Shown here: positions 4,259 to 23,802 of the stretch, piece after piece
How positions within the stretch are numbered: position 1 is the stretch's first letter
How the letters are laid out: every line of letters begins with the position of its first letter
Origin: an uncultured Bacilli bacterium
Lineage (GTDB): Bacteria; Bacillota_I; Bacilli_A; RF39; UBA660
Assembly (NCBI GenBank): GCA_934101495.1
Contig: CAKORG010000001.1
Span: 8,214-72,213 of the forward strand
Direction of reading: 5' to 3'
DNA: 64,000 nucleotides
Notes under the pieces: generated by a model
The model's input: the letters and a program-made list of their open reading frames with translations, nothing else
Told to the model about the DNA's origin: nothing
The model's database searches: none
Translations under genes and position numbers: made by a program

Positions 4259-4262
<4 letters not shown>

Positions 4263-6346
4263 TTTCCTATCCTCCTTAAACCTTGATAATTATTTAAAAA
4301 TTTCTTTATACCAAATCTTTTATCAAAAGCAACTGTTACAAATCTTTCATCGTTATCTACAACGACACCTTTACCAAATGATGCATGCATAACAATTTCT
4401 CCATGTTTGTAATCAATTCTATCTCCTTCATAAAAGTTAGTTTTATTAAGTACTTTATTTTCTGTTTTACTTTCTTCTTTTTCAATTAAGTTACTATCTA
4501 TTTCTGCAATAAATCTAGATGGTGGATTCATATTGGTGTTACCAAATAACATTCTTCTTTTGGCATTAGTAATATAAAGTCTTTCTTTGGCTCTAGTTAT
4601 ACCAACATAACAAAGTCTTCTTTCTTCTTCAAGATTGCTTTCTTCATTTAAACTCATTGAATGTGGCATTATACCTTCTTCCATACCAATTAAGAATACT
4701 ACTTTAAATTCTAGTCCTTTCGCAGCATGCATTGTCATCAAAGTAATGGCATTATCAAGAGTTTGATGTTCTGATTGATCAGCCACAATACTTATATCTT
4801 CAAGAAAGTCTTCAAGATTTACTGTACCAGTTTCTTTTTGATAATTTTCTGTAATACTTTTAAATTCCATTAAGTTTTCAAGTCTTATATCAGCTTCCAA
4901 GGTATGTTCTTTTTCAAGTTCTTCCTTCATACCAGATTTTTCAAGCACAACATCAATTAATTCTGTTAAGTCCAAATCTTTAGCATCTTCAGTAAGCTCT
5001 AAAATTAGTTTTTTAAACTCAACTTCTTTTGGTTTAGATAAACATTTAAACATGCATTCATTATTATCCTTCGCTAAACTTCTTAAATTATTAATTGATG
5101 TATCCCCGATACCTCTTTTAGGAACATTTATAACTCTTTCTAGAGAAACATCATCTTGATGATTAGAAATAAGTCTTAAATAACAAAGTAAATCTTTAAT
5201 TTCTTTTCTTTTATAGAAATAATAACTGCCCACTACTCGATATGGCCAATTTACTTTTAATATGGCATCTTCTACATTTCTTGATTGAGCATTAGTTCTA
5301 TAAAGAATAGCAAAATCATTATAATCATACCCTTCATCAAGAAGTTTTTTTATTTCATCTACAACAAGTTTTACTTCATCTTTTTCATCATTACCTCTAA
5401 AATACTTAATTTTAACACCATTACCAAAAGTACTATATAAATTTACTTCTTTTCTTTCAACATTATTTTTTATAACACTATTTGCTGCATTTAAAATAGT
5501 ATTGGTACTTCGATAATTTTGATTTAAAGTAATACTTTTACTATCTGGATAATCTTTTTCAAAATTAAGGATATTTTTATAATTAGACCATCTAAATCCA
5601 TATATACTTTGGTTTACATCACCTACTACAAAAAGGTTACGATATTTACTTGCAAGTAGTTTAACTAATTTATATTGTACTTCATTTGTATCTTGGTATT
5701 CATCTATTAAAATATATCTATACTTTTCTTGATATTTGTCTAGTATATCATCATTTTGCATAAATAGTTCAACTGGTCTTTTTAATAAATCATCAAAATC
5801 TACAGCATTATTTCTTTTTAATACTTTTTCATATTCATGATATACTTTAACTGCCACTTTTTCTGGAGGACTATTTAAGTATTTATCAACTTCACTATCA
5901 CTTAACATCTCATTTTTAATAAAACTTATTTTATTTCTTATGTAGCTTACACTATATTCTTTAGTACTTATATCAAGTTCTTTCATTATCTTCTTTATAA
6001 CACTTGAAACATCATCGCTATCTATTATAGTAAAATTGCTTGTTAAACCTAACTTTTCTGTATTTTCTCTGATAACTCGAAGTCCAAAAGAATGAAATGT
6101 ACCCACAAAAGCATAGTTGTTTTCAACCATGTTACTTATTCTATCACGCATTTCTTTTGCTGCTTTATTTGTAAATGTTATAGCTAAAATATTTCCAGAA
6201 TAAATACCATCATTTATCATATTTGCTATTCTAGTTGTTAAAACTTTTGTTTTTCCAGAGCCAGCTCCAGCTAAAACTAGACATGGTCCTTCTTTATGTA
6301 AAACAGCTTCTTTTTGTTCTTTATTTAATCCATCTAACGTGTTCAT
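4259..6346 (-). CDS. pcrA: ATP-dependent DNA helicase PcrA (UvrD/Rep family)
   Basis: 695 aa; Walker A AGAGSGKTKVLTTR, DEYQDTN motif, UvrD C-terminal helicase domain; RBS GGGAGG 6 nt upstream of ATG 6346. Confidence 0.93.
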
Positions 6347-8795: not shown

Positions 8796-9737
8796 CTAAC
8801 TGCATGTATAACCACTGGCTGTCATTTCAAAATAAATAACTTTGGCATCTGTTCCGTACGAATATATTGATTTCAAATTCATTGCGTCGTTTTTAACATT
8901 TGAAAGATTTATTGTAGTTTTAAATTTTAAAATTCCATTTTCAAGTGTTATATTTGATGATACACCCCCAATATTGTTGTATGTTGCTTTAGATATTTGA
9001 TAGTTGTTATATAAATTATTAAAGTTAGGGTCGCTTGTGCTTACCTCATATATTAAATTTGTTACATATACTTTGTTACTATTTAGTATATATTCTAATT
9101 TTTCATAATTCTTATTGTTTGTACACGTCATGGTTGCAATTCCTTCTTCTGTTACATTAACAATATGAGATGGGTATTCATTTTCAAGTATTTTCACTAA
9201 AGATATAGTAGTTGTCATAGTATCATTTAAATCATAACTGGCATCCGTTTCAGAGTTTGGACTCAAAATATCTTGCAAATAAATTCTTTGAAGCAATTTT
9301 TTGTTGTCACTATATAAATTTACAAAATAATGTGCATCTTTTAGTTCTAAAACTTTGCTAGTTAAATTCGTAATTTTGAACTTAATTGTATTGTTTTCAA
9401 TGTTGAAATTACTTATTTTAAAACTTTCTTCTGTTATTTCAAGATCATTTGCTATTTTGTATTCTTTTACTGATGTTTCATCTTTTGTATCATCATTTTT
9501 TTTAGCATCGTTGCTAGGTGTATTTGGCACTACCACTTCTGGATTAAGATAACTATTTATGTATGCTGATATTTCTGGTAAGTATAAAACTCCAGCGACA
9601 AATATAACAAATATTACAAATATCCATAAAATTCCAAAAATACTTGCTTTCTTTTTATCTTGTACTACAGCTAAAGTTGTAGGTACTAATTCTTCTTCTG
9701 AAATAACTATTTGTTTTTTCTTAGCCAATTTAATCAT
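8796..9737 (-). CDS. hypothetical membrane-anchored extracytoplasmic protein
   Basis: 313 aa; single N-terminal TM (ASIFGILWIFVIFVIFVAGVLYL) then an Asn/Thr-rich extracellular region; 9-nt gap to scpA, so probably co-transcribed. Confidence 0.5.
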   Translation of the reverse strand: MIKLAKKKQIVISEEELVPTTLAVVQDKKKASIFGILWIFVIFVIFVAGVLYLPEISAYINSYLNPEVVVPNTPSNDAKKNDDTKDETSVKEYKIANDLEITEESFKISNFNIENNTIKFKITNLTSKVLELKDAHYFVNLYSDNKKLLQRIYLQDILSPNSETDASYDLNDTMTTTISLVKILENEYPSHIVNVTEEGIATMTCTNNKNYEKLEYILNSNKVYVTNLIYEVSTSDPNFNNLYNNYQISKATYNNIGGVSSNITLENGILKFKTTINLSNVKNDAMNLKSIYSYGTDAKVIYFEMTASGYTCS

Positions 9738-9850: not shown

Positions 9851-10372
9851 CTATTTAATTAAACCATTTTGAACGTATTTTGTTTCATTTATGACGACGA
9901 AAGCATCTGGGTCATTGCTTCTTACTATGTGAGTTAGAGTTTTTAGTTTTGACTTATTAAGCTGAATCATTAGCATCGTTTTATCCTCATTATCTTGAGG
10001 ATTTTTTAAATCTATTGCTGATACTCCAAAACCTGCTTTTCTGATTTTTTCAAGCATCTTTTTAACTTTACTTGTTTTTGTAGTAACCTGAACACCGATT
10101 AAGCCATCCACAAAGTTATTTGATATAAAACCTCCTAAATAAGTTCCTGTTGCATACCCAGCCGAATAACATATTGGGATTAGTATTGATGTTACATCAG
10201 TTGTTAGTGCTTCTCTGGCTACTAAAAACCAAATAAGGACTTCAAAGAAAGCTATAAGAGCTGGAGTAAATCTTCGGCCTCTTACTACTAAGACAGTTCT
10301 AATTGTTCCCAAAGAAACATCCATAATTCTCGCAAAAAATATTTTTATACATAGTAATAGCATATTTAACAC
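9851..10372 (-). CDS. UPF0316 / DUF2179 family membrane protein
   Basis: 173 aa; N-terminal ARIMDVSLGTIRTVLVVRGRR...FFEVLIWFLVAR closely resembles the UPF0316 (B. subtilis YebE-like) signature. Confidence 0.7.
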   Translation of the reverse strand: MLNMLLLCIKIFFARIMDVSLGTIRTVLVVRGRRFTPALIAFFEVLIWFLVAREALTTDVTSILIPICYSAGYATGTYLGGFISNNFVDGLIGVQVTTKTSKVKKMLEKIRKAGFGVSAIDLKNPQDNEDKTMLMIQLNKSKLKTLTHIVRSNDPDAFVVINETKYVQNGLIK

Positions 10373-10376
10373 ATCC

Positions 10377-10643
10377 TTATATATTTATTATTATGGTCAG
10401 AATTATTAAAATTACAAGTACAATTGATATAATTATTAGTCCAAGAACTTTATTTTCCTTGACATCTCGATATTCTATATTATTTTGATGTCCATATTTT
10501 TCACTTAATAATGTAATTCTTTCAGCATTTTTATCTTTCATCTTGTTTTGATAATTTATTTGTTTTTGGTCCATTAATGCACCACAGAATTTACACACCA
10601 TTCCATCATTTGGAAGTGGATTTCCACATCTATTACATTTCAT
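10377..10643 (-). CDS. zinc-ribbon domain protein with a C-terminal TM anchor
   Basis: 88 aa; CNRCGNPLP...CKFCGAL (two CxxC pairs) then hydrophobic LGLIIISIVLVILIILTIIINI; 4-nt overlap with the upstream 671-aa gene. Confidence 0.55.
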   Translation of the reverse strand: MKCNRCGNPLPNDGMVCKFCGALMDQKQINYQNKMKDKNAERITLLSEKYGHQNNIEYRDVKENKVLGLIIISIVLVILIILTIIINI

Positions 10644-10646
10644 ATT

Positions 10647-12662
10647 TTACTCCAATGTTTGTCCTATATAGGTAATTTTAGCATATCCGTTTCCGCTGTG
10701 ACCCGTCTCATCAACTCCTAAAGGAGATTTGAAAGAGCTATTTCCAGCAATTGTTTGAGCACTAGTTAATTGATAATCTATATTAAGTAAATATCCATTT
10801 GGAAGAGTTGCTGAATTGGTATAAACGAAACCAGAGCCACCACCACCGCCACTTGCAGCGTATTGATTTGTGCCTGACGTTGTTGCGTATCCACCGGCTC
10901 CGCCACCATACCAGCCGCCACCGCCGCCGCCTGAGTTACTATAGTTATTTGATGTTGATCTTGCATTTCCTGCAGCTCCACCTTGAAAAAAGGTGCCATC
11001 ATTACCATTATAAGAACCATAAATACCTTTACTTCCGCCAGATGTTTGCGTTCCACCTTTTGCAGTAGATTCCTCTGCATAAGCAGTTCCATTGCCGCCG
11101 TTAAGCCCGCCGCCGTAACCACCGGCTCTACCAGAATAATTAGCTCCGCCACCGCCACCGCCGGCAACAATAACACGAGCTAGTATATCGTCATTATTAA
11201 TTCTTATATCAGTTCCACCACCACCGGAACCTGCCATTTTATAGCCTGAGTTTCCACCACCATTTACACCACCGGTCTTAACGCTTGCTGTTGTAGTACC
11301 GGCAGCGCCTTGACCACCAGTGTGTATAAATACGTTATCGCCCTTATTTAAGTATACTGTTCCAACAGAATATCCACCTTTGCCCCCAGGATAAGTTGTT
11401 GGAGAAGAATAAGCATATCCACCTTCAGCACCCCAAACTTCTAATTTGTAATAACCGGAAACTTCGATTAATTTTGATTGAACAGCACTTGAATAGTCAA
11501 ATAATCCGTTATAAACATAATCTGTTACTGATGTTGTAGCTAAAATGCCAGACCCGTTGCCAGATGAGTCTACAGAATATGCTTTAAATGTAAACTCAGT
11601 AGCAGGAGCTAAATTTTCAAATGTATGGTTTGTTGCAGTACTTTCCACATATGTATCACCATTATCTTTAGAATAATAGTATTTAGCGGGTGTAAGCCCT
11701 ACATTACTATTTGTTAAATTTATAGTTACATTTTGTCCACTTACAATATTTTGCATACTTTCAAGAATTGGACCAGAACCGACATTTAAATATGCCACAC
11801 AGTTAGTTCTGTTTGTTGCTGAAATAACAACCTTTTGATTTTGTATAGACATTGTTGAAGTTCCTGTACATGCAGATTTACTTCCAAGTTCGTAGAAGTT
11901 ATTGGTTGGTATTTTGTCTACTTCAAAGTATGTCGTTGAACCTTTCTTAGATTGAACAAATATTTTTAGCGCAATATCTACATCCATTGCATCCATATAT
12001 GCCTTACATATCGCACCTTTTTTTTTGGCATTAACCGTAAAGTTTTGTTTATCTGTGTTGTATGTTACTATTGTATCTGTTACATGAGTATTTAAATCAT
12101 TTGCATAAACGCAGTATGACATACTACTATTAAATTCATATCCAACTGATGGAAGCTCTGTTGTTTCGAGTTTTGTATAAACTCCATTTCCTACTCCATC
12201 ACTATCGACATTTTCAGCATAAACTTCTAGTGTTATATCTAAACTTGCAGTTGACTTGAAATATAAATAGCAAACGTCATGACCAGTAGCATCAATACTT
12301 GCATCAAATGAATCAGAATTATATGTTATCTTTGCTCCGTTTGTACAATAGCTCATGCTTGCTTCATATTTATAACCAGCTTTTGGTATGTATGGGTATA
12401 CAGAATAGCTATTAACCCCATTTCCATTAGTATCCCTATCTTCAGCCATAATTCTAATATCCAAATCAGGAATTTTTGGAGTTGTACTAAGCAAAATTGG
12501 GGTTGTATCAATAACTTGATAAAATGCATATGAAACTATTAATCCTACACATGCTAAAATGACTACTATTGCTATACTTACTAGTAGGATTTTATATTTA
12601 TTTAAAAGATTTGTTACATCTTTATTTAAGGCTTTTTTTAATTTTACGCGTAATTTATCCAT
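10647..12662 (-). CDS. membrane-anchored surface protein with internal about 85-aa repeats, an FN3-like segment and a C-terminal glycine-rich domain (ALK/LTK-type Gly_rich-like)
   Basis: 671 aa; N-terminal TM ILLVSIAIVVILACVGLIV; duplicated motif (AEDRDTNGNGVNSYSVYPYIPKAGYKYEASMSYC / AENVDSDGVGNGVYTKLE...SMSYC); C-terminal 250 aa with runs such as VIVAGGGGGGANYSGRAGGYGGGLNGGNG. GGN codons give a local GC spike and spurious overlapping ORFs. Confidence 0.7.
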   Translation of the reverse strand: MDKLRVKLKKALNKDVTNLLNKYKILLVSIAIVVILACVGLIVSYAFYQVIDTTPILLSTTPKIPDLDIRIMAEDRDTNGNGVNSYSVYPYIPKAGYKYEASMSYCTNGAKITYNSDSFDASIDATGHDVCYLYFKSTASLDITLEVYAENVDSDGVGNGVYTKLETTELPSVGYEFNSSMSYCVYANDLNTHVTDTIVTYNTDKQNFTVNAKKKGAICKAYMDAMDVDIALKIFVQSKKGSTTYFEVDKIPTNNFYELGSKSACTGTSTMSIQNQKVVISATNRTNCVAYLNVGSGPILESMQNIVSGQNVTINLTNSNVGLTPAKYYYSKDNGDTYVESTATNHTFENLAPATEFTFKAYSVDSSGNGSGILATTSVTDYVYNGLFDYSSAVQSKLIEVSGYYKLEVWGAEGGYAYSSPTTYPGGKGGYSVGTVYLNKGDNVFIHTGGQGAAGTTTASVKTGGVNGGGNSGYKMAGSGGGGTDIRINNDDILARVIVAGGGGGGANYSGRAGGYGGGLNGGNGTAYAEESTAKGGTQTSGGSKGIYGSYNGNDGTFFQGGAAGNARSTSNNYSNSGGGGGGWYGGGAGGYATTSGTNQYAASGGGGGSGFVYTNSATLPNGYLLNIDYQLTSAQTIAGNSSFKSPLGVDETGHSGNGYAKITYIGQTLE
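12018..12026. repeat. T9/A9 homopolymer inside the coding region of the 671-aa surface protein gene (encodes KKK)
   Basis: cacc-ttttttttt-ggca seen directly; coding-strand A9 in ...NAKKKGAICK... Confidence 0.8.
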
Positions 12663-12831
12663 ATGCCTCTAACCTATCCTAATAATAATTTTAAAATAAA
12701 ATGTCTTTAAAGTCAATTATTTATAATGAATTTATTTACAATTTTTTTATTATGTAAATTTATTATACCCTAAGTATTTAACCCAATACATATTTTAGGT
12801 AAAACATACTATAAGTTAGGGAGGAAAATTT

Positions 12832-16821: not shown

Positions 16822-17340
16822 ATGTTAAATGTTGTTTTATTTGAGCCGGAAATACCTCAGAATACTGGTAATATAATGAGAACTTGTGTGGCAACTAATA
16901 CTACTCTACATTTAATTAAACCTTTAGGTTTTAAAGTTGATGATGCTTCACTTAAAAGAAGTGGTGTTAATTATATAGATAAATTAAAGTGGTATGTATA
17001 TGAGGGTTGGGAAGATTTTTTAAGTAAGAATCAAAATGGTACATTTTATTTTTTAACGAGATATGGTCATAAACCACATTCTAGTTTTGATTATAGTAAC
17101 TTAAATGAAAATATCTATTTTGTTTTTGGAAAAGAATCCACAGGTATACCAAAAGATATTTTGAAACCCCACATTGATAAATGTATGAGAATGCCTATGA
17201 CTTCTAATGTACGAGCTCTCAACTTATCTAATACAGTTGCCATAATGCTTTATGAAGCTTTAAGACAAAGAAATTATAATGGACTATTATTTGATGAGCC
17301 ACATAAATCAAAAACTGAAATCGAAGATTTTGAAGAATGA
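16822..17340 (+). CDS. trmL: tRNA (cytidine/uridine-2'-O)-methyltransferase TrmL (SpoU/TrmH class)
   Basis: 172 aa; MLNVVLFEPEIPQNTGNIMRTCVATNTTLHLIKPLGF... typical TrmL/CspR N-terminus; RBS AAGGAG. Confidence 0.85.
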   Translation: MLNVVLFEPEIPQNTGNIMRTCVATNTTLHLIKPLGFKVDDASLKRSGVNYIDKLKWYVYEGWEDFLSKNQNGTFYFLTRYGHKPHSSFDYSNLNENIYFVFGKESTGIPKDILKPHIDKCMRMPMTSNVRALNLSNTVAIMLYEALRQRNYNGLLFDEPHKSKTEIEDFEE

Positions 17341-17423
17341 GATTTACTTATTCTTTTTTTCTTTACATCAATTTGACAAATACCAATGAAAATGATACAA
17401 TGTTAGTGATGCGGGGGACATTT

Positions 17424-18842
17424 ATGAATGAAATGAGAGGATCAGAGTTAAAAGTTTTTTTTGAAAATCAGCCTGACGAATTTATTATGGATTTCTTTGT
17501 ATTTCAAAATGAACTTGAACTTGATGTGTTTTTAATAGGAATTTTATCAATTAAGAACGAAGACCTTAGATATAAAATGTTTGATAAATATTCTGTTTTC
17601 TTTAGAGAATTTGACTTAAAAGCTTTTAAAAAACTATTTACGGATGAAGAACTAGCTGATATTGCTTATGAGTTTTTGGATAAAATGAAATCATTAAGCA
17701 TTCATTTAAAAGCAATATTTGTTGTCGCTACACAAAATGAAGAATTATTATTAAAATACTTTAGTGAAGCTATAACAGATGAAGATAAAATGGAATATAT
17801 TAAGAATGTACATTATCGCTTTGGATATTTTAGTGAGTTAGAGCAATATTTAATAAGTAACTTACATGACGAAAGATTAAAATATTTATTGAATTCAAAT
17901 AGTCCCGATAAAAAGGAAATGTATTTAACCGAAGGATGCAAAGTATCTTCACAATCCATTTCATCAGGAATAACCATAGGTGTTGAATTAGAAACAACGA
18001 ATGAAAATATTAGTTTATTTAAAAATATGCCTTGTTTATTAGGAAGATTTGATGTGAAGAGTGATACTTCGGTTAAAAGCGGATTTGAAATTGTTTCACC
18101 AATAATGCATTATAATCAAAAAGATTTAGCAGAACTCGAAGCAGTTTGTACTGCTTTGCAAAAGTGTGGATTTGCTACTGACGATACATGTGGGGGTCAT
18201 ATTCATATTGGTGCTAGTTATCTCAAAACTAAAGAAGATTATGCAATGTTGTTATATTTATTTACCAATTGTGAAGATATAATTTATAAAATTTCTGATA
18301 GAAGTTGTTCTCAGAAAAGATTAAGTATTGAAAAATATGCTAGTAAAATTAAAGATAGACTTTTGATTTCAATATCTAATGGAGATTTAGATAATGCTGA
18401 ATCTTTTTCCGATTATGTTAAAGCTTTAAAGAACATTATGAGGACTAGACATTGTGGTCTTAATCTTCAAAATATAAATAAACCTGAAAAGAATACTATT
18501 GAGTTTAGAATGGCAAATGGAGAAATTGATTATAAAGAATTGCTTGCAAACATTAATCTTTTTGCTAGACTTATTCAAATTTCACACGATTTAAATACTT
18601 TCGATGAAAATTATTATAAGGTTAAATATGCACAAAAAATTGGGCAAGAACCTGATGAAGAAAGACGTCTTGAATTTTTGTTAGCTTTATTATTTGATGA
18701 CGAAAAAGAAAAAGAAATTTATCGTGAGAGATATGCAACAAATTCTAGGATTATGGAGCTTATTGATGGTGATATCATTGCTCCAGCACATGAGTTAATT
18801 GGTATGAGTCGCGAAAGAAAGTTGTGTAAGAAGACAATATAA
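17424..18842 (+). CDS. Amidoligase_2 (GCS2/glutamine-synthetase-like amidoligase) family protein with an about 190-aa N-terminal alpha-helical extension of unknown function
   Basis: C-terminal 280 aa carry Amidoligase_2-like motifs (ITIGVELETT..., GFEIVSPIMHY..., CGGHIHIG..., TIEFRMANGEIDYKELLANINLFARLI). Preferred start ATG 17424 (MNEMRGSEL...) preceded by RBS GGGGGA at 17413..17418; alternative upstream ATG 17337 overlaps the trmL stop (ATGA). Confidence 0.6.
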   Translation: MNEMRGSELKVFFENQPDEFIMDFFVFQNELELDVFLIGILSIKNEDLRYKMFDKYSVFFREFDLKAFKKLFTDEELADIAYEFLDKMKSLSIHLKAIFVVATQNEELLLKYFSEAITDEDKMEYIKNVHYRFGYFSELEQYLISNLHDERLKYLLNSNSPDKKEMYLTEGCKVSSQSISSGITIGVELETTNENISLFKNMPCLLGRFDVKSDTSVKSGFEIVSPIMHYNQKDLAELEAVCTALQKCGFATDDTCGGHIHIGASYLKTKEDYAMLLYLFTNCEDIIYKISDRSCSQKRLSIEKYASKIKDRLLISISNGDLDNAESFSDYVKALKNIMRTRHCGLNLQNINKPEKNTIEFRMANGEIDYKELLANINLFARLIQISHDLNTFDENYYKVKYAQKIGQEPDEERRLEFLLALLFDDEKEKEIYRERYATNSRIMELIDGDIIAPAHELIGMSRERKLCKKTI

Positions 18843-22065: not shown

Positions 22066-23802
22066 TTAAAACCAAATGTTTTTAACATTAACACTTGTAC
22101 TTTCTGGAATTGGATTTGGAAGTTCAAAATTAACTAATGTCGGTATTTTAAAACCTACCCCGAACACAAATGCAGCTCCTGGTGATAACGATTTAATTTG
22201 CTCAATATTAGCCATTGATACATTGGTGCTCATTGTTCTTACAATCTCTAAGTCTGCTGGGTGAAATACTCTGAATACTATAAAGTTTGCACATTGACTT
22301 AAAGAAGTCGTAGAAAGTTCACTAGGTCTTTGCGTAATAAATGTAAGAAGTGTTCCATATTTTCTTCCTTCTTTAGTAATTCTATCAAATATGCTATAAC
22401 CAATTACATTTATATCATTATCATTTTGCACATATCTATGCGCTTCTTCCAAAATAATATTGAATGACAAGCTACCTCTTTTTTCTAATGAAGTTGTATA
22501 ATTAAATAAAAGTTTACTATATATTTTAGTTAGTACTTTAGCAAAATCGTCATCAATATCGCTTAAATCTATATTTACTAAATTATTTTTAATAAACATA
22601 TCTCTTATAAATTCTTCTTTTCCAATATATTCATCAACATTAAATATGTGTTTAGTGTCACTATTTATTATACTTTGAAGTCTTGTTTTTAAAATATTCA
22701 TCTCTTTATAAATTATATCATTATTAATCGTTCCTTCACTAATAAGAGAAAATTCTAGAGCACTATATAAATCTTCAAGAGAATAACACATAGCATCTAC
22801 AATATCTATGCTTTCTAAATCTACATTTTCAAATTGTTGTAAAAACTTCATAACTTCGAAAATTGCATTCATTTTTCCAGAATCATCAATTAAAAGACAT
22901 TGCCTAAATGTTCTGTCATAGCCTGGTTGGTGTATAGTTGAATCAAGATTTAAATCTTCAGTATTATAATGAGTTAAAACTGCAATTACTTGGTCCCTGA
23001 TAGTACTCGATGATCTTCCACTTGTTAATATATCCACCAAACATTTAGCTATGATATCGTTTTTATATCTTTTAATTTCTGGGGTATTACTTTTAAATAT
23101 TTTAACTAATTTTAACGATTTTTTTAAAACTGGTAATTGATCCGGACTAGAAACTCGAAGTAATAATGCTAGATCATCAACATCTAAAAACCATGCTGGA
23201 AACTTCAGTTGAGCTTCTTTATCTTTTTTAGGTTTATTTGAAAAACTAGCAAAATTTAAACCTAAATTTTTTATATTTTTAAATGTTTCTACATATTCAC
23301 CATAGGCATCAAATAAAACTATGTGAGAATTTATGGGTTTGTTTATAAAAAATAAATTTTGAAGAATTCTAGCTACTCCACAAGATTTACCAGAACCAGT
23401 GTTGCCAATTACAGCTAAGTGATTTGCAAATATATCATTTAAAGAAACGGACACATTAAATTTTTTATATATGGCTGAGGATCCCAGTAATAGAAAGTCT
23501 TTTTGAATTTCATTTTTTCCTATGATAAGTTCAAGTTCTTCTTTATATATAACTCTAACTGGGGCTATACCACTAGGTTTCTTGACTATACCAGCATTAA
23601 ATTTGTTATTTATTATTTCACCAACTAAAAGTATTTTGGCTTCTACTTCATCTATATATATTACTTCACCAACTATTTTTCTACTATCTTCCAGAAAAAT
23701 AACGTGACATGCAATTAAACTAGATATGGCTTTTCCAGATATATTTTCAATTGTAACTTCATTGTTATTTATCCTTTTTATCTTACCAAACATAACAACC
23801 AT
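22066..23802 (-). CDS. HerA-like P-loop ATPase (HAS-barrel + DUF87/FtsK-HerA superfamily), standalone
   Basis: 578 aa; N-terminal barrel-like region, Walker A AVIGNTGSGKSCGV, Walker B/sensor region IILEEAHRYV, arginine-finger region FITQRPSEL; monocistronic with its own terminator. Confidence 0.7.
   Translation of the reverse strand: MVVMFGKIKRINNNEVTIENISGKAISSLIACHVIFLEDSRKIVGEVIYIDEVEAKILLVGEIINNKFNAGIVKKPSGIAPVRVIYKEELELIIGKNEIQKDFLLLGSSAIYKKFNVSVSLNDIFANHLAVIGNTGSGKSCGVARILQNLFFINKPINSHIVLFDAYGEYVETFKNIKNLGLNFASFSNKPKKDKEAQLKFPAWFLDVDDLALLLRVSSPDQLPVLKKSLKLVKIFKSNTPEIKRYKNDIIAKCLVDILTSGRSSSTIRDQVIAVLTHYNTEDLNLDSTIHQPGYDRTFRQCLLIDDSGKMNAIFEVMKFLQQFENVDLESIDIVDAMCYSLEDLYSALEFSLISEGTINNDIIYKEMNILKTRLQSIINSDTKHIFNVDEYIGKEEFIRDMFIKNNLVNIDLSDIDDDFAKVLTKIYSKLLFNYTTSLEKRGSLSFNIILEEAHRYVQNDNDINVIGYSIFDRITKEGRKYGTLLTFITQRPSELSTTSLSQCANFIVFRVFHPADLEIVRTMSTNVSMANIEQIKSLSPGAAFVFGVGFKIPTLVNFELPNPIPESTSVNVKNIWF

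Follow-up and report, generated by a model that had tools for sequence, protein, structure and literature searches.

A predicted membrane-anchored surface protein of uncultured gut Bacilli with an ALK/LTK-type glycine-rich domain that appears to be exchanged as a cassette

Introduction

What would a gut bacterium do with a glycine-rich domain (GRD) of the type through which ALK and LTK bind their cytokines? The question is raised by three close-set open reading frames (ORFs) in a 64,000-nucleotide (nt) stretch of DNA from an uncultured Bacilli bacterium (contig CAKORG010000001.1, assembly GCA_934101495.1; hereafter the window), which encode proteins of 671, 88, and 173 amino acids (aa).

10647-12662, minus strand: GRD protein, 671 aa, stop codon included (PF12810 match; 1350 homologues, many of them full length)
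10377-10643, minus strand: tail-anchored zinc-ribbon protein, 88 aa (CxxC-x10-CxxC at C3, C6, C17, and C20; transmembrane helix at ~aa 66-88)
9851-10372, minus strand: UPF0316 membrane protein, DUF5698 + DUF2179, 173 aa (probable true start ATG 10363, giving 170 aa)

So far, work on the ALK-type glycine-rich fold has dealt with a cancer-relevant human receptor and, recently, with the tail fibres of phages. Databases and PHROGs already list PF12810 proteins from bacteria and viruses, with no function assigned to them; we found no paper on cell-anchored bacterial members, and a full-text search for PF12810 gave one unrelated fungal genome paper. What is new here is a defined architecture, a small, probably dedicated partner, and a tip that appears to come from a pool shared with gut phages. 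The locus thus offers a defined case, with one conserved chromosomal site, a conserved stalk, and natural tip variants, some of which are phage-shared. It makes testable what the GRD recognizes and whether specificity follows the cassette, and it points to a route by which genes pass between the receptor-binding proteins of phages and the surface proteins of hosts in abundant uncultured human gut bacteria. Should the tip prove to be an ordinary adhesin, many unnamed proteins would gain a useful annotation, but the outcome would be no surprise.

Results

Identification and predicted fold of the glycine-rich domain

The original prediction on this DNA, made from the sequence alone, had placed conserved Gly blocks resembling the ALK/LTK region in the C-terminal part of the 671-aa protein. 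All three blocks were found, at aa 498-520 (VIVAGGGGGGANYSGRAGGYGGG), aa 542-568 (GGSKGIYGSYNGNDGTFFQGGAAGNAR), and aa 577-592 (SGGGGGGWYGGGAGGY), and glycine makes up 28% of aa 401-671. A Pfam search, which had been proposed as a check, matched PF12810 (ALK_LTK_GRD) to aa 402-666 with an E value of 8.3e-46 and 157.4 bits against a cut-off of 24.5 bits, covering profile positions 7-243 of 243, and the same family matched all 32 aligned homologues. When PDB sequences were searched with a profile of the family, only ALK, LTK, and SCD-2, a nematode ALK homologue, were retrieved (E from 2e-8). The family profile was needed for this result; a single-sequence phmmer search of the PDB returned no ALK and gave chance-level BMP-1 matches (E 0.6). 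No NCBIfam model was found for the GRD protein, and no second GRD copy was found in the window.

10662-11501, minus strand: TNF-like + glycine-rich domain of the ALK/LTK type, aa 388-667, the exchangeable cassette (Pfam, model, fold and profile searches)

Structure prediction, a second proposed check, gave a confident model, and both checks came out in favour of the original prediction. The AlphaFold2 model of the GRD alone had a predicted local distance difference test score (pLDDT) of 91.2 and a predicted template modelling score of 0.91, and within the full-length model the domain had pLDDT values of 85-97. The model has beta-strands at both domain ends, and the Gly segments between them were assigned by DSSP neither to helix nor to strand, at pLDDT 85-97. 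In a Foldseek comparison with the PDB, ranks 1-21 were all ALK/LTK structures (E 4e-8 to 2e-5, probability 1.0), followed by the tail tip of mycobacteriophage Bxb1 (9d93, E 5e-4) and the fibre of cyanophage Pam3 (7ypx, E 0.011; 7yfw, E 0.025), beyond which there was only noise (E > 1). The sequence identity to ALK/LTK is ~17-21%. By sequence and model, the GRD is a clear member of PF12810 with a predicted TNF-like fold of the ALK/LTK type, in which the Gly-rich subdomain is inserted in a beta-sandwich. Of the 14 segments of human ALK that experiments define as polyproline-II (PPII), at least 9 coincide with conserved Gly blocks of the family; the list of segments was taken from PMC13243192, and the alignment assumes that the chain numbering of 7MZW starts at residue 673. 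By analogy, the GRD may have a polyglycine-II core.

Exchange of the domain among alleles and its relatives in phages

An alignment of 32 sequences showed that the first 380 residues are well conserved and that the last 270 consist of invariant Gly blocks and indel-rich variable segments. Identities in the N-terminal stalk and in the GRD do not follow one another (Spearman coefficient 0.22): alleles P0004 and P0093 share 0.89 of their stalk residues versus 0.29 of their GRD residues, whereas P0015 and P0047 share 0.65 versus 0.84. Neighbouring genes are much better conserved than the GRD gene: in one relative (L003), FtsK, CotJC, and ScpA are 97%, 98%, and 95% identical to those of the window versus 56% for the GRD protein. 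In a 90%-identical relative, by contrast, the GRD (0.92) is no more diverged than the stalk (0.88), which indicates that divergence arises by replacement and not by local hypermutation; on this comparison, hypermutation of the kind caused by diversity-generating retroelements was rejected as the source of GRD diversity. Judging from these alignments, the family is mosaic, and the GRD is swapped as a cassette while the stalk is conserved.

The allelic GRDs are up to 63-68% identical to GRD proteins of phages. The GRD of P0005, which is encoded at the same cotJB / GRD / zinc-ribbon / UPF0316 locus, shares 63% identity over 270 aa (E 4e-72) with a 332-aa phage protein from an IMG/VR contig and at most 49% with the 31 other alleles compared. 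For P0034 the corresponding values are 61.5% to a phage protein versus at most 46% to the other alleles (31 compared), and a common allele type has a GRD 56-61% identical to those of another phage group. The similarity to phage proteins begins at ~aa 383-388, the least conserved part of the bacterial alignment, which marks the cassette boundary. On the phage contigs, the GRD genes lie amid genes for tail-fibre-like proteins, holins, and endolysins. The GRD of the window matched phrog_1589 (E 1.9e-32), and a BFVD fold search with it retrieved phage relatives at E 1e-21 and 43-44% identity. These similarities suggest that this locus and gut phages have in common the pool from which the tip comes. 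The phage relatives were found by pattern scans of IMG/VR and by the BFVD search; a tblastn search with the GRD retrieved nothing from the INPHARED phage records, probably owing to low-complexity filtering, which masks the Gly runs.

The base composition of the gene was also examined. GC content over 10700-11450 is 0.45-0.50, against ~0.22-0.33 in the flanks and a window mean of 0.28. Removal of the Gly codons lowers the GC of the GRD part from 0.451 to 0.326, so that GGN codons explain most of the spike, much as the original prediction had it; what is left is a slightly raised GC at third codon positions (GC3) and more frequent GGC codons. So slight a deviation in composition would fit an import of cassettes. 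GGC accounts for 29% of the Gly codons in the GRD part (10650-11460, minus strand) versus 9% in the stalk, and GC3 of the GRD gene is 0.17-0.24, higher than that of the genes for FtsK, ScpA, IF-2, and UvrA (0.10-0.15). The three overlapping ORFs that had been called spurious do all lie within the Gly-rich coding region.

10778-11176 (minus strand), 10799-11068 (plus strand), and 10983-11183 (plus strand): out-of-frame or antisense ORFs inside the Gly-rich coding region, judged spurious

A Pfam search of these nested ORFs (10778-11183) gave no significant match, and we judged them to be by-products of composition, as they lie wholly within a gene supported by homology.

Related genes were seen in other settings. 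Three large gut-phage contigs (L081 6750-14962, L085 7959-13320, and L095 3693-11244) carry GRD genes beside a radical-SAM gene (phrog_1802, E 1e-64 to 1e-70), together with an ORF of ~810-830 aa that has a Cys-rich N-terminus (MRLMACSGGCGTSC...) and 22% Gly, and a 1097-aa phage protein on L081 has three tandem GRDs. Four stretches from gut metagenome-assembled genomes (L029 1654-8899, L039 4357-9006, L061 319-10026, and L032 4555-13089) contain related genes in other arrangements. In one of these genomes, four genes in tandem encode a similar N-terminal anchor and a Gly-rich region that is maximal from ~aa 370-390, and others encode giant multi-GRD proteins of 1549 aa, 2844 aa, and > 3235 aa. 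In these gut lineages, surface proteins seem to make common use of the GRD as a building block.

Membrane anchor and stalk

N-terminal to the GRD, the protein was divided into the following segments.

12594-12662, minus strand: predicted cytoplasmic N-terminal tail, aa 1-23 (7 K/R, 2 D/E, net +5; K14, D15, and K22 invariant in the family)
12522-12593, minus strand: single transmembrane signal-anchor, aa 24-47 (sole hydrophobic segment, peak Kyte-Doolittle 3.35; helix 24-40 in the model)
12246-12473, minus strand: stalk module 1, aa 64-139, Cys pair C106/C131 (repeat comparison and alignment)
11985-12245, minus strand: stalk module 2, aa 140-226, Cys pair C184/C219 (hhalign against module 1, probability 98.8%, E 5.7e-17)
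11772-11984, minus strand: stalk module 3, aa 227-297, Cys pair C265/C288, more diverged (hhalign E 1.9e-6 against module 2 and 4.3e-4 against module 1)
11523-11771, minus strand: FN3-like beta-sandwich, aa 298-380 (fn3 E 0.012; model pLDDT > 90)

An N-terminal module of ~85 aa had been described as duplicated, but it is actually present in three copies of ~75-87 aa each. The six invariant Cys residues form one pair per module and are probably disulfide-bonded, and module 3 was modelled as a beta-sandwich with pLDDT ~80-85. The modules match no Pfam family and were found in only 107 representative clusters among 1.84 billion proteins; PF12810 is also carried by 5 of the 10 distant stalk-module clusters tested. 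The FN3-like segment that had been noted earlier is weak in the sequence of the window protein itself, where the fn3 match (E 0.012) is under the threshold, but it holds at the family level: 11 of the 32 homologues match fn3 (best E 7.5e-5), and the segment is modelled confidently as a beta-sandwich.

The single N-terminal transmembrane segment, the 23-aa tail with its net charge of +5, and the three invariant Cys pairs of the stalk fit the earlier description of a surface protein. The GRD protein would thus be a type II (N-in, C-out) membrane-anchored protein, exposed on the cell surface. A scan for LPXTG-like motifs found none, and the C-terminus coincides with the last GRD strand; in this lack of a C-terminal sorting signal the protein differs from sortase-anchored LPXTG adhesins. 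A lipoprotein N-terminus (ILAC, aa 35-38) was considered and rejected, as C38 is not invariant and the hydrophobic stretch runs past the Cys.

Zinc-ribbon gene of a probable partner protein

The original prediction had the GRD gene overlap the zinc-ribbon gene by 4 nt. In the window, the two are instead separated by a 3-nt spacer, the junction reading TAA (10649-10647), AAT, and ATG (10643), and the spacing in relatives is -4 to +12 nt at 24 of 26 loci. The following signals were noted around the pair.

12688-12716, minus strand: candidate sigma-70-like promoter, the best match upstream of the GRD gene (TTGACT, 17 nt, TAAAAT; consensus match)
10650-10653, minus strand: GGAG Shine-Dalgarno sequence of the zinc-ribbon gene, within the last GRD-gene codons and 6 nt before the ATG (read from the sequence)

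The placement of the Shine-Dalgarno sequence suggests that translation of the zinc-ribbon gene is coupled to that of the GRD gene. The promoter candidate has 10 of 12 consensus matches and lies 26 nt upstream of the GRD gene ATG; as consensus matching in AT-rich DNA, the scan was not significant (45 sites found versus 35 expected).

The 88-aa protein has its CxxC-x10-CxxC ribbon at the N-terminus and a transmembrane helix that reaches the C-terminus. Since this helix ends the protein, the ribbon should be cytoplasmic, with nothing exposed outside. Its Pfam matches were generic zinc ribbons, all sub-threshold. It also weakly resembles the N-terminus of TcaA (NCBIfam NF053815, E 6e-5, 22 bits versus a cut-off of 550), which likewise has a CxxC...CxxC ribbon followed by a transmembrane segment; however, TcaA has 463 aa with a large extracellular domain, whereas the 88-aa protein stops at the transmembrane helix and, far under the threshold, is not a member of the family. 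An anti-sigma-like role had been suggested for it, but this is not supported: there was no match to an anti-sigma family, the protein has no extracytoplasmic part, and the ORFs on either side of the locus (~6.9-16.2 kb) showed no sigma factor gene.

The zinc-ribbon family comprises 101 clusters, all ~88 aa, 52-98% identical, unnamed, and present only in this clade. The gene was not found at any of 53 more distant GRD loci (tblastn and a scan for the zinc-ribbon-plus-transmembrane motif), which argues that the pairing is specific to this protein family and not to the domain. From the coupling and the co-distribution, the zinc-ribbon protein probably partners the GRD protein from the cytoplasmic side, at the conserved tail and transmembrane segment of the latter.

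UPF0316 and conservation of gene order

The next gene does encode a UPF0316 protein, as had been predicted, although the range originally given for the locus (10377-12662) leaves it out. DUF5698 scored 57.5 bits against a cut-off of 27.5 and DUF2179 40.8 bits against 22.8, in the usual domain order; the best NCBIfam model (PRK04164 group) matched with E 7e-37, yet under its equivalog cut-off. ATG 10363 is a likelier start than GTG 10372, and relatives are annotated with 170 aa. No intrinsic terminator was predicted on the minus strand from the GRD gene to scpA, and UPF0316 is probably co-transcribed with the other two genes. It is a widespread housekeeping-type membrane protein, loosely attached to the GRD/zinc-ribbon pair.

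Conservation of the three-gene arrangement, which had been put forward as a further check, was observed at 26 genome loci, all from a single clade of uncultured gut Bacilli. Their records bear the names uncultured Bacilli or Tenericutes, Clostridium sp. CAG:609, Firmicutes bacterium CAG:460, and Candidatus Onthocola; the L016 contig stops short of UPF0316. The block is usually preceded by cotJB-cotJC and ftsK on its upstream side. The setting is core chromosome, with genes for LigA, PcrA, ScpAB, FtsK, IF-2, and UvrA in the window, and no phage genes were identified near the locus.

Variants of the arrangement were seen in a few relatives. Two (L017 5197-7027 and L021 8345-10175) have a two-gene insert of ~1.9 kb between the zinc-ribbon gene and UPF0316, which matches PADLOC PDC-M12A (E 4e-119) and PDC-M12B (E 4e-51) and is an AbiL-like candidate defence pair. 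Two others (L006 6001-9485 and L025 3945-7974) carry two tandem stalk-plus-GRD paralogues followed by one zinc-ribbon gene. In the P0005 lineage (L153 3997-6764), genes for a STAS protein and a sigma-70-family factor and spoVAC/spoVAD/spoVAEB lie downstream of UPF0316; they replace a 313-aa protein gene of the window and scpAB, and the three-gene block survived this rearrangement. In the window, the 313-aa protein is encoded between UPF0316 and scpA (8796-9737, minus strand) and has one N-terminal transmembrane segment. It matched no Pfam, NCBIfam, PHROG, or PADLOC family and recurs with 72-83% identity in only some related loci.

Discussion

Comparison with known glycine-rich proteins

Like ALK and LTK (7NX1, 7NX4, 7LS0, and 7N00), the GRD protein is a single-pass membrane protein with a predicted extracellular PF12810 domain, for which they occupy the top fold ranks and whose Gly blocks fall on PPII segments of ALK. 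Its topology is nevertheless the opposite (type II), with the GRD at the C-terminal distal end; Pfam found no kinase, EGF-like, MAM, or LDLa domain, the cytoplasmic part has 23 aa, and the GRD is hypervariable, apparently through cassette exchange. Lacking a kinase and oriented the other way round, it does not count as an ALK/LTK-type receptor.

The same type of domain is found on phage fibres and tips. In the Pam3 gp24 fibre (7YFW/7YPX), a TNF-like + glycine-rich domain combines a conserved Gly stem with a hypervariable tip that binds the receptor (PMC9608196), mutations that alter the host range of Klebsiella phage TFP_Y fall in its glycine-rich domain (PMC12671077), and mycobacteriophages Bxb1 and Jabs have polyglycine-rich domains on their adhesion devices (9D93; PMC13252515; 10.64898/2026.07.24.740622). 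In these proteins, a Gly stem with variable loops is thought to bind the host receptor, and our family alignment shows the same stem/variable pattern, in line with the matches to PHROG 1589, 9d93, and 7ypx. The bacterial gene differs in lying in the core chromosome among cotJ, ftsK, and scpAB, without an adjoining fibre chaperone gene, and its product has a transmembrane anchor and a beta-sandwich stalk in place of the helical domain that docks phage fibres to the baseplate. With no docking domain and a core-chromosome location, the GRD protein is not a phage fibre.

Two further systems are similar in principle. The gp38 adhesin of Salmonella phage S16 and of T-even phages (6F45) has a rigid polyglycine-II core, variable loops, and modular exchange of specificity (PMC9608196; PMC13243192), but it belongs to another fold family outside PF12810, has no TNF-like sandwich, and was not among the Foldseek matches of the GRD model. 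The PE_PGRS proteins of pathogenic mycobacteria have surface-exposed polymorphic Gly-rich domains predicted to form polyglycine-II sandwiches (PMC10216338; PMC9436101); they are an unrelated sequence family of Actinobacteria, not of gut Bacilli, with no TNF-like domain and with a PE domain and type VII secretion instead of a transmembrane anchor.

Possible function

We consider it fairly probable, by analogy, that the GRD protein serves for recognition in the manner of an adhesin, with the cassette determining its specificity, because of the phage and ALK precedents, the pattern of core and variable loops, the distal position on an anchored stalk, and the turnover of cassettes. The basic tail and the one transmembrane helix would hold the protein in the membrane, and the three beta-sandwich modules and the FN3-like domain would form a stalk bearing the C-terminal GRD. 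By analogy with solved relatives, the conserved Gly blocks would build a rigid polyglycine-II core, and the indel-rich loops between them would serve as the surface that recognizes an extracellular ligand; a glycan or some component of the cell envelope is the most plausible candidate. Specificity could be altered when recombination replaces the whole GRD cassette with one from a pool to which tail-fibre-region proteins of gut phages and other GRD genes of bacteria also belong. The zinc-ribbon protein would be co-expressed and tail-anchored, with its ribbon in the cytoplasm.

Several points weigh against this proposal. The function is carried over by analogy from a metazoan receptor and from phage fibres, and we infer both ligand binding and surface exposure; the stalk, which we estimate at ~20 nm, may only just cross a Gram-positive wall. 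The Foldseek TM-scores to ALK/LTK are modest (0.37-0.46, with root-mean-square deviations of 8-13 Å), so that membership of the fold family is well supported but close geometric similarity is not, and the detailed geometry may differ. Gut-phage proteins share 37-47% identity with the GRD of the window, the best of them just 39-47%; exchange is thus shown for the family and not for the window allele. In addition, synteny alone is no proof of joint function, because all 26 genomes belong to one clade with broadly conserved gene order.

The partner gene and the domain could also be read as parts of an ALK-like signalling receptor, in which the GRD binds an extracellular signal and the zinc-ribbon protein, reached through the transmembrane segment and tail, acts as transducer or as an anti-sigma-like regulator. 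The invariant K14, D15, and K22 of the cytoplasmic tail, the tight conserved coupling with a clade-specific cytoplasmic zinc-ribbon protein, and the use of the same domain as a ligand-binding module in ALK/LTK would all suit such a receptor. We regard it as quite improbable, however, as no kinase, sigma factor, response regulator, or DNA-binding domain occurs in the three genes and none was seen in the flanking ORFs (~6.9-16.2 kb), the zinc-ribbon protein has only its sub-threshold generic matches and the weak one to the TcaA N-terminus, and swapping of whole cassettes with phages is a habit of adhesins and receptor-binding proteins rather than of dedicated sensors. Little chance is likewise given to a phage-directed function, in which the surface GRD would bind the phages' envelope receptor or act as a decoy, leading to masking or superinfection exclusion, and an arms race would drive cassette turnover. 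PADLOC-DB 2.0 gave no match for any of the three proteins (or for the 313-aa protein), the locus has its fixed place in the core genome rather than in a defence island, a link between the GRD phages and this clade as host has no support, and a shared domain does not show a shared ligand. What speaks for it is the identity of allelic GRDs (up to 63-68%) to GRD proteins from phage tail-fibre and lysis regions, the GC content of one such phage contig (0.31 versus 0.28 for the window), and the AbiL-like defence pair inserted at the same locus in two relatives.

Bundles of polyglycine-II helices have mechanical rigidity, and the Gly-rich lattice might be a rigid building block of the layer next to the wall or of the spore surface, in a structural envelope or spore-surface protein without specific ligand recognition. 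The GRD gene is divergent from cotJB-cotJC in relatives whose contigs reach far enough upstream, and sigma-F-like and spoVA genes lie just downstream in one relative, but this link to sporulation is one of adjacency alone. Swapping of the distal domain among alleles and phages is not expected of structural proteins, and the sole promoter-like site is of the sigma-70 type, which is weak evidence; we think a structural role very unlikely. A prophage remnant or domesticated tail-fibre gene without a cellular role would account for the match to phrog_1589 and to many phage proteins, but it is scarcely credible and already largely refuted by context: no phage gene was identified near the locus, which has a housekeeping setting, an N-terminal transmembrane anchor and stalk stand in place of a baseplate-docking domain, and the locus is intact and conserved in 26 species-level genomes. 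Beyond the adhesin-like protein that we favour, a bolder and rather unlikely proposal is that the locus is a bacterial counterpart of a phage receptor-binding protein. Cassettes would then circulate between phages and the cell surface, since both would bind envelope glycopolymers; the protein would act in cell-to-cell recognition or in masking of phage receptors, conflict would drive allelic turnover, and the zinc-ribbon protein would be its dedicated partner.

Other features of the window

A few further features were noted outside the three-gene block.

4559-4658, minus strand: match to Rfam RF03531 ("Clostridioides difficile sRNA included into helicase gene"), 71.5 bits, E 3e-10, above the gathering score
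12832-13819, plus strand: cotJB-cotJC region, in which the listed cotJC ORF (TTG 13208) overlaps cotJB by 59 nt
17337-18842, plus strand: Amidoligase_2 protein
22066-23802, minus strand: HerA/DUF87-type ATPase with a weak FtsK/SpoIIIE match

Together, the Amidoligase_2 and HerA/DUF87 genes, which lie a few kb away, may be signs of a mobile or defence element. The RF03531 match sits inside an ORF for a UvrD/PcrA-type helicase (4259-6346). In the cotJC ORF, the Mn_catalase match begins at residue 18, and the true start is probably further downstream.

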